Shown here one piece after another: positions 32,754-32,957 of a stretch of 51,994 bases of DNA. This DNA comes from a virus (lineage: Duplodnaviria; Heunggongvirae; Uroviricota; Caudoviricetes): IMG/VR virus record IMGVR_UViG_3300045988_149344; one strand, 5' to 3'. The notes beneath the pieces are model-generated. The model made no database searches. It had not been told where the DNA came from and saw only the letters and a list, made by a program, of their open reading frames with translations. Within the stretch, counting starts at the first letter, position 1. The number at the start of each line of letters is the position of its first letter. A program made the translations under genes and the position numbers.

Positions 32754-32930
32754 ATTAGTGTAATATCGCCTCAATGAATCGTGATTTATAGAGCGATTTA
32801 GCTGTTAGCCGCGACAGGCGCGGCGGCAAGTATGGCGGGGTAGTGACTCCTTCCCCCTCATGACGCCGAGTTGCCAGGTTGACCATACGCCTAAGTGGCA
32901 ACACCGAAGTGCGTTACGAGCTTCCAGTTT

Positions 32931-32957
32931 GCCCATCTTCGGGTGGGCGTTTTTTTC
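32931..32957 (+). terminator. Rho-independent terminator
   Basis: GCCCATC-TTCG-GGTGGGC followed by T7. Confidence 0.65.

Follow-up and report, generated by a model that had tools for sequence, protein, structure and literature searches.

The segment at positions 32754-32957 of the window (the whole stretch of viral DNA analysed here, 51,994 nt) forms the leader of the ban operon in P1 and P7, under control of C1. Two parts make up this mosaic leader: a structured RNA domain of ~95 nt, termed element A, is joined to a P1-specific linker with a plain intrinsic terminator, standing at the place that DicF occupies elsewhere. In element A several helices meet in a junction that a pseudoknot locks, and compensatory changes keep this fold. 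This fold seems undescribed, given that it has no Rfam family and that none was found in the accessible literature. The feature is partly known through the annotation of phage P1; by comparison with Rfam 15 and the accessible literature, the pseudoknotted element, its linkage to swappable modules and its retention without DicF appear to be new.

Results

The segment is the leader of the ban operon

The window is a P7-like P1 phage-plasmid, 99% identical to phage P7 and 96-97% to phage P1; over the 1 kb around the segment the identities are 98.5% and 97%, respectively. A plasmid of E. coli strain 127 is 100% identical over the 675-nt intergenic stretch (blastn). The dmt reading frame ends at 32746. 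The order 3' of the leader is tmRNA-like RNA, tRNA-Asn (start 33422), tRNA-Thr (start 33500), tciABC, tRNA-Ile and ban; the third tRNA lies at 35576. The untranslated RNA genes, ~1.6 kb, stand 5' of tciA. The records of phage P1 (AF234172, reportedly the work of Lobocka et al. 2004) and phage P7 (AF503408) both place the operator Op72ab/Obanab and the promoters P1ban and P2ban over the dmt stop codon (Table 1). The plus-strand promoter overlapping the operator, which the first-pass annotation had proposed, is P1ban and matches the P1 record. A generic promoter scan missed it because its -35 hexamer fits at only 3 of 6 positions. The P1 record alone carries, in addition, a misc_feature named 'dicF-like region' (AF234172 68791-68892), which corresponds to approximately 32861-32962 of the window and spans P3, the linker and the terminator; it covers just the 3' half of the segment and comes without any structure.

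Table 1 Features of the ban operon leader, in coordinates of the window
Feature	Position	Strand	Sequence and composition	Basis
Bivalent C1 operator Op72ab/Obanab	32737-32764		copies 32737-32753 (+), ATTGCTCTAATAAATTT, and 32748-32764 (-)	located in the sequence; equals the protein_bind features of AF234172 and AF503408
Promoter P1ban	32738-32766	+	-35 TTGCTC 32738-32743, 17-nt spacer, -10 TAATAT 32761-32766	P1 annotation mapped to the window
5' leader of the predicted transcript	32774-32807	+	AU-rich; conserved in P1-like phages only	read from the sequence
Element A, conserved structured RNA domain	32808-32902	+		homology, covariation, covariance model
Hairpin P1	32808-32813/32819-32824	+	GCCGCG/CGCGGC, loop ACAGG	
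Helix P2a	32824-32827/32865-32868	+	CGGY/RCCG	
Pseudoknot	32830-32835 x 32883-32888	+	GUAUGG x CCAUAC in the P3 loop; general form GYAUGG x CCAURC, GYAUGG 5' of P2b	
Hairpin P2b	32836-32840/32853-32857	+	variable	
Helix P3	32870-32876/32896-32902	+	GUUGYCA/UGRCAAC (here GTTGCCA/TGGCAAC)	
Linker, P1-specific	32903-32930	+	28 nt; weak hairpin GAAGU..GCUUC 32906-32924; stands where DicF has its 5' single strand	
Intrinsic terminator	hairpin 32931-32948, U7 32950-32956	+	7-bp GCCCAUC/GGUGGGC, UUCG loop, then G + U7	terminator scan

Transcription from P1ban would start at ~32773-32774, as judged from the promoter sequence; a start near 32774 and the terminator at 32956 predict a terminated RNA of ~184 nt. 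This RNA would open with a 5-codon leaderless frame (32774-32791, ATG AAT CGT GAT TTA TAG), which is probably fortuitous. On either strand, longer open reading frames (26-111 aa) overlap the segment, and hypothetical proteins are annotated here in some related phage records, from which one could read a small protein gene such as the 111-aa minus-strand frame 32805-33140 or the 47-aa plus-strand frame 32860-33003. We give this reading next to no weight. The frames have no match among phage protein families (PHROG), indels between homologues are not multiples of three and break them, they cross the terminator and conserved RNA helices, and the substitutions follow a base-pair pattern. A protein-coding role was rejected on the lack of family matches and the frame-breaking indels, in keeping with the earlier view that no plausible ORF is present. 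The many G-U pairs in the helices of element A establish the plus strand as the RNA strand.

Element A is a pseudoknotted junction maintained by covariation

The helices of element A were derived from an alignment of 24 diverse copies. In the MAFFT alignment of these copies, 95.3% of the cells are paired and 9 pairs have changed on both sides, which none of 500 shuffles equalled, and slid controls reached at most 57%. A model-based alignment of 35 copies, which favours the structure by construction, gave 96.5% paired cells and 12 pairs changed on both sides, again with 0/500 shuffles equal and slid controls at or below 57%. The covariance model of element A matches the window once, at 32791-32914 (101 bits, E 3e-26), and all helices are found there except the outer closing stem P0, which is confined to lambdoid copies and has been lost in P1/P7. 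The K-12 sequence alone folds into the same four-arm junction. Rfam (15) gave only chance-level matches over 32730-33000 and over the Qin homologue, and no family covering element A.

Both stems named at first sight thus belong to this domain. GTTGCCA...TGGCAAC is helix P3, exactly as proposed, and GCCGCG/CGCGGC is hairpin P1, although its loop is the 5-nt ACAGG rather than ACAG. The description of the segment as 'highly structured' fares less evenly. Its folding energy is ordinary (z = -1.54, with 18 of 200 dinucleotide shuffles as stable), as is that of element A alone (z = -1.56). Because stability does not exceed that of shuffles, the description is unsupported by folding energy, and the evidence for the stems is their covariation.

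The most telling changes are found within the P1-like phages themselves. The P1-type and P7-type elements (the window carries the P7 type) are 82.6% identical, whereas their flanks are 97-99% identical, and among the differences are swaps of U-A for C-G pairs, in P2a as well as in the pseudoknot, and swaps in P2b. Compensatory changes in three helices, the pseudoknot included, between flanks of such identity indicate selection on the fold within P1-like phages. They also speak against a passive relic, that is, a piece of a lambdoid early operon that recombined into P1 and persists as a functionless untranslated leader with a leaky terminator. This explanation would account for the mosaic junctions, with lambdoid homology stopping at 32902 and homology to phage D6 beginning near 32928, and for the loss of P0; in view of the compensatory changes we regard it as highly improbable.

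The loop nucleotides GGUUGA, CGCYURAG and AAG do not vary between Escherichia, Citrobacter, Trabulsiella and Erwinia, whose stems covary. Such loops would fit a structured RNA that acts in trans on its own, perhaps by titrating a host protein or a defence system as a decoy or sponge, and for which the hairpin behind would serve as terminator only. The retention of the fold in P1 with no DicF-type module behind it, and a P1 neighbourhood that is a cluster of RNA genes (the tmRNA-like element and tRNAs), are consistent with this proposal. It is nevertheless improbable in our judgement, since such an RNA has no known partner and no match to any described RNA family, and since in most phages element A lies inside a long polycistronic transcript and not behind a promoter of its own. 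A tRNA-like element was considered and rejected: despite the four arms of the junction in the lambdoid form, CCA and T-loop features are lacking, and ARAGORN calls nothing.

The 3' module is a plain terminator and not DicF

The canonical terminator GCCCATC-TTCG-GGTGGGC of the first-pass annotation was recovered by the terminator scan, with one G between the hairpin and the run of seven T. The hairpin has a folding energy of -12.8 kcal/mol (z = -4.6), and none of 200 shuffles is as stable. Its tail is U7 in the window and U6 in P1 itself, and its 5' flank is U-rich. Hfq-binding small RNAs characteristically end in a GC-rich terminator hairpin with a tail of 7 or more U, and the window terminator has such a hairpin and such a tail. 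The linker occurs only in P1-like sequences and is absent from phage D6; its fold is weak (z = -1.9).

D6 and P1 have the terminator hairpin and everything downstream in common, behind differing leaders. The D6 leader (L147 1180-1520) has a P0-like closing stem, GUUGCGGU/GCUGCAAC, with an interior that contains neither P3 nor the pseudoknot. The P1/P7 hairpin is a plain UUCG terminator that, as in D6, came along with the tmRNA-like element behind it, and it is not of the seed-bearing DicF type. The D6 leader also holds pieces similar to the 3' flank of DicF (AAAGUGAAU); another terminator-like hairpin lies just upstream.

DicF is among the oldest known bacterial small RNAs. The position of the P1/P7 hairpin is of the DicF type, i.e. 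directly 3' of element A in a repressor-controlled early operon and ending in an intrinsic terminator. The DicF model RF00039 (gathering score 48 bits), however, has no match in the window at E<=10 in 32730-33000 (271 nt) or at E<=1 in 32000-36500, while the K-12 positive control scores 76.7 bits; membership in the DicF family is ruled out by this result. As homology extends only to the element next to DicF and DicF itself is not matched, the 'dicF-like' similarity of P1 sits in element A. The 'dicF-like region' in the P1 annotation should consequently not be taken to mean that P1 encodes DicF.

Element A precedes hairpin modules of variable sequence

Sensitive blastn divides the intergenic region into separately conserved blocks. 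The first, block A (~32809-32906), has a match of about 82% identity in prophages of 4433 of the 5426 complete genomes of E. coli, at a median of 2 places per genome (maximum 9) and mostly on the chromosome. It is also present in lambdoid phages such as mEp460, Evi, Ayreon, cdtI, 2H10 and Stx2c phages. In K-12, the Qin prophage carries element A after ydfC and before dicB, directly 5' of DicF. A pattern scan of IMG/VR gave at least 120 loci, and a survey of one genome per species found copies in Escherichia, Shigella, Citrobacter, Trabulsiella and Erwinia.

In 139 copies, element A is always followed within a few tens of nt by a hairpin and U-run. These modules form 12 clusters with at least 8 distinct hairpin types: DicF accounts for ~97 copies and the type 'GGCGGUACCAG' for 20, the P1/P7 type is found in 7 copies, all in P1-like DNA, and several rarer types make up the rest. 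Conversely, element A stands at a constant upstream distance in 128 of 128 DicF copies taken by a DicF-only pattern. The lambdoid 3' modules have a common base (UUUGGCGG..CCGCC-U5) and large hypervariable tops. The distance from element A to the promoter is 35 nt in P1 and ~300-750 nt in lambdoids, and that to the terminator module is fixed. There is one element A per phage, and its operons are under direct repressor control, by C1 at Pban in P1 and, in lambdoids, in the early-left operon downstream of a DicA/CI-like repressor.

Some copies depart from the common arrangement. In Actinobacillus phage vB_Apl-pPE4 (L126 2590-2760), two tandem identical hairpin/U-run modules stand behind a single element A, in which a promoter-like site TTCACA-16-CAAAAT (2473-2500) takes the place of P0 and of the 5' arm of hairpin P1. 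In the K-12 Qin prophage, the 5' part of element A recurs in a partial, degenerate form (L003 ~3915-3945; ACGCGAAAGCGCAUGGCGAGGUAGC) ~70 nt upstream of the real copy, and one IMG/VR variant, L012, has the appearance of having lost the DNA between two such copies.

The constant spacing to DicF invites a reading close to the small RNA of the first-pass annotation, namely that the segment is a small-RNA precursor. The folded 5' body of this precursor, element A, would direct RNase E processing and/or protect the short RNA, and the 184-nt RNA or a processed 3' piece of it would act in trans as an Hfq-type riboregulator, by analogy with DicF. The 5' end of DicF is indeed cut by RNase E just 3' of the position of element A, and its 3' end is formed by termination (PMC9438474, PMC5069750). 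The hypervariable tops on a common base are what one would expect of seed regions, and the U7 tail and U-rich 5' flank of the window terminator would also fit. Against this, the P1/P7 hairpin is a minimal UUCG terminator without a seed-bearing loop and came with the downstream element and not with element A; the DicF model has no match; and the second tandem module of pPE4 has no element A of its own. Moreover, RNAduplex pairing of 32907-32957 with the ftsZ leader (-80..+40) is no better than that of shuffles, though real DicF is not separated from shuffles by this comparison either. We consider a precursor of this kind unlikely.

Further RNA elements in the ban operon

A second conserved RNA, block B (32958-33140, ~190 nt), lies directly 3' of the terminator. 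It contains a tmRNA-style tag frame at 33018-33050 (GCA AAC GAT GAT CTG ATG ATG GTA GCG GCC TAA, ANDDLMMVAA*), with UAAAU before it and covarying pseudoknot-like hairpins after it. The tag always has 10 codons and occurs in 17 variants (ANDDVVLMAA, ANEEMYLAVA and others) in 123 copies, from P1-like phages, Ackermannviridae, Schitoviridae, Drexlerviridae and other phages. Matches to the Rfam tmRNA_permuted model are consistent but below threshold (24-33.5 bits, gathering score 47), and ARAGORN, which calls no tmRNA in 130 records, finds no tRNA-like domain. The tag strings were not found in the accessible literature; the tmRNA database papers deal chiefly with mycobacteriophage and Bacillus phage G tmRNAs. 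Directly 3' of this tmRNA-like element, the window folds into a long hairpin at 33131-33227 (GGUAAGGGCGCUGG...UCAGCGUCCUUUCC), which draws a spurious 'mir-465' match in Rfam. Other phages have GGUAAGAGCAUUG/CAGUGCUCUUUCC as the covarying arms, and the motif UGCUCUUU in those phages may resemble the rrn boxA core.

Farther along, at 34350-34470, the window has a sub-threshold Rfam match to STnc100 (37.8 bits, gathering score 47). In Qin, an STnc100-like element follows DicF as the dicB leader (L003 4171-4380, 34.4 bits). The match upstream of tciA implies that the P1 ban operon holds one more part of the dicBF locus of lambdoids, besides element A.

Discussion

A proposed dual-output leader

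No plus-strand promoter besides Pban is annotated or predicted between Pban and ban, and the terminator at 32931-32956 is the sole canonical plus-strand terminator on this path, so that expression of the tRNAs and ban needs read-through. In the homologous Qin locus, the terminated 53-nt DicF and read-through transcripts both exist (PMC9438474, PMC5069750). Based on the above data, we propose the following sequence of events. When C1 leaves Op72, RNA polymerase would start near 32774 and transcribe element A. Part of the complexes would stop at 32956 and yield the ~184-nt RNA, and the others would read through into the tmRNA-like RNA, tRNA-Asn, tRNA-Thr, tciABC, tRNA-Ile and ban. Element A may act in cis to tune read-through versus release or processing of the short RNA at the adjoining terminator, possibly via RNA polymerase or a host factor and without pairing to the terminator. 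In its logic, though not by family membership, it would then resemble the put RNAs. That the leader has this dual output, a C1-repressed ~184-nt RNA together with read-through, and that element A works in cis at the adjoining terminator, is the reading we adopt, tentatively and with confidence that falls a little short of even.

The first-pass annotation had offered a C1-repressed small RNA or a regulated leader or attenuator, and these two readings are equally alive. The anatomy fits both, with a C1 promoter, ~184 nt of non-coding RNA and a strong terminator, and the homologous locus yields both products; what does not survive is an attenuator working by alternative pairing as the conserved mechanism. 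Element A is constant while the modules behind it differ in sequence (at least 8 types), and alternative pairing with a terminator that varies cannot be conserved. In P1, moreover, no upstream complement to GCCCAUC is seen by eye.

Several observations weigh against the dual-output leader. The stability of the segment is not above that of GC-matched shuffles, and D6 retains the terminator and the downstream RNAs behind a leader without P3 and the pseudoknot. Each phage has a single element A, where HK022 has putL and putR. The constant spacing of element A and DicF may stem from a recent shared ancestor and not from function. Since DicF is made by termination with element A upstream, element A does not abolish termination. 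A variable distance to the promoter combined with a fixed distance to the terminator is, in addition, untypical of promoter-proximal processive antiterminators.

Comparison with known systems

The closest relative of the leader is the Qin ydfC-DicF (dicBF) locus. Its element A is homologous (~82%) and has the same helices, and its order is the same: a repressor-controlled early promoter, element A, a hairpin with U-run, and genes that need read-through, the STnc100-like element after DicF recurring further down the P1 operon. In contrast to Qin, the 3' module of the window is not DicF and there is no P0; only 35 nt separate element A from the promoter, where Qin has it behind ydfABC; and it is the tmRNA-like RNA and tRNAs, not dicB, that follow.

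Read-through at put sites occurs in cis and depends on the beta' zinc-binding domain of RNA polymerase. The put RNA of phage HK022 (~70 nt, two stem-loops, V shape) is an RNA-only processive antiterminator, and putL and putR, like element A, are structured cis-encoded RNAs in the early operons of N-less lambdoids, upstream of terminators that have to be passed (PMC9378689); antitermination by element A would be compatible with its context of N-less operons and a terminator on the path. Element A is, by contrast, a multi-helix junction with a pseudoknot, and it occurs once per phage, whereas HK022 has both putL and putR. Homology to put was rejected, as the structures differ and the element A model has no match in the HK022 early regions (21000-31500) at E<=10.

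No N-like antiterminator was found in the element A early-left operons of Qin, mEp460, F1055, Ayreon, an Stx2c phage and pPE4. With lambda N as query, tblastn had 0 matches in 218 segments; the same N sequence matches phrog_271, as a control. A lambda-type nut site (boxA and boxB with a GNRA-like pentaloop, and a cognate N) was likewise rejected, because the P1 hairpin loops are ACAGG or AAAUGG and not of the boxB type, and because no N-like protein was seen in the six operon contexts or the 218 segments.

Processed Hfq-dependent small RNAs that arise within operons or 3' UTRs, such as DicF, SroC and MicL, offer a third comparison, in that an intrinsic terminator gives the 3' end while read-through goes on. 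Upstream structure can direct RNase E in RNAs of this group (PMC9438474). The P1 hairpin differs from them in having no obvious seed, no target was found, and the segment would work like the DicF-type intra-operon small RNAs in anatomy only.

Implications

P1/P7 keeps the fold behind a repressor-controlled promoter without a DicF-type hairpin, which suggests that element A has a function of its own. A wider and more speculative proposal, possible but on balance rather unlikely in this full form, is that element A represents a new class of cis-acting phage RNA that decides between termination and read-through (or protects against Rho) at whatever terminator follows, via RNA polymerase or a host factor. 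Both the P1 ban operon and the many lambdoid prophages of Enterobacteriaceae that lack N would be served by it, and DicF with its sequence-variable siblings would be cassettes that can be exchanged behind it. P1/P7, with Pban, one terminator and reporters, provides a simple genetic system for the function of element A. If element A controls processing, this would explain how DicF-type RNAs are released; if it controls read-through, it would explain how transcription gets past the early terminators of N-less lambdoids and of the P1 ban operon.
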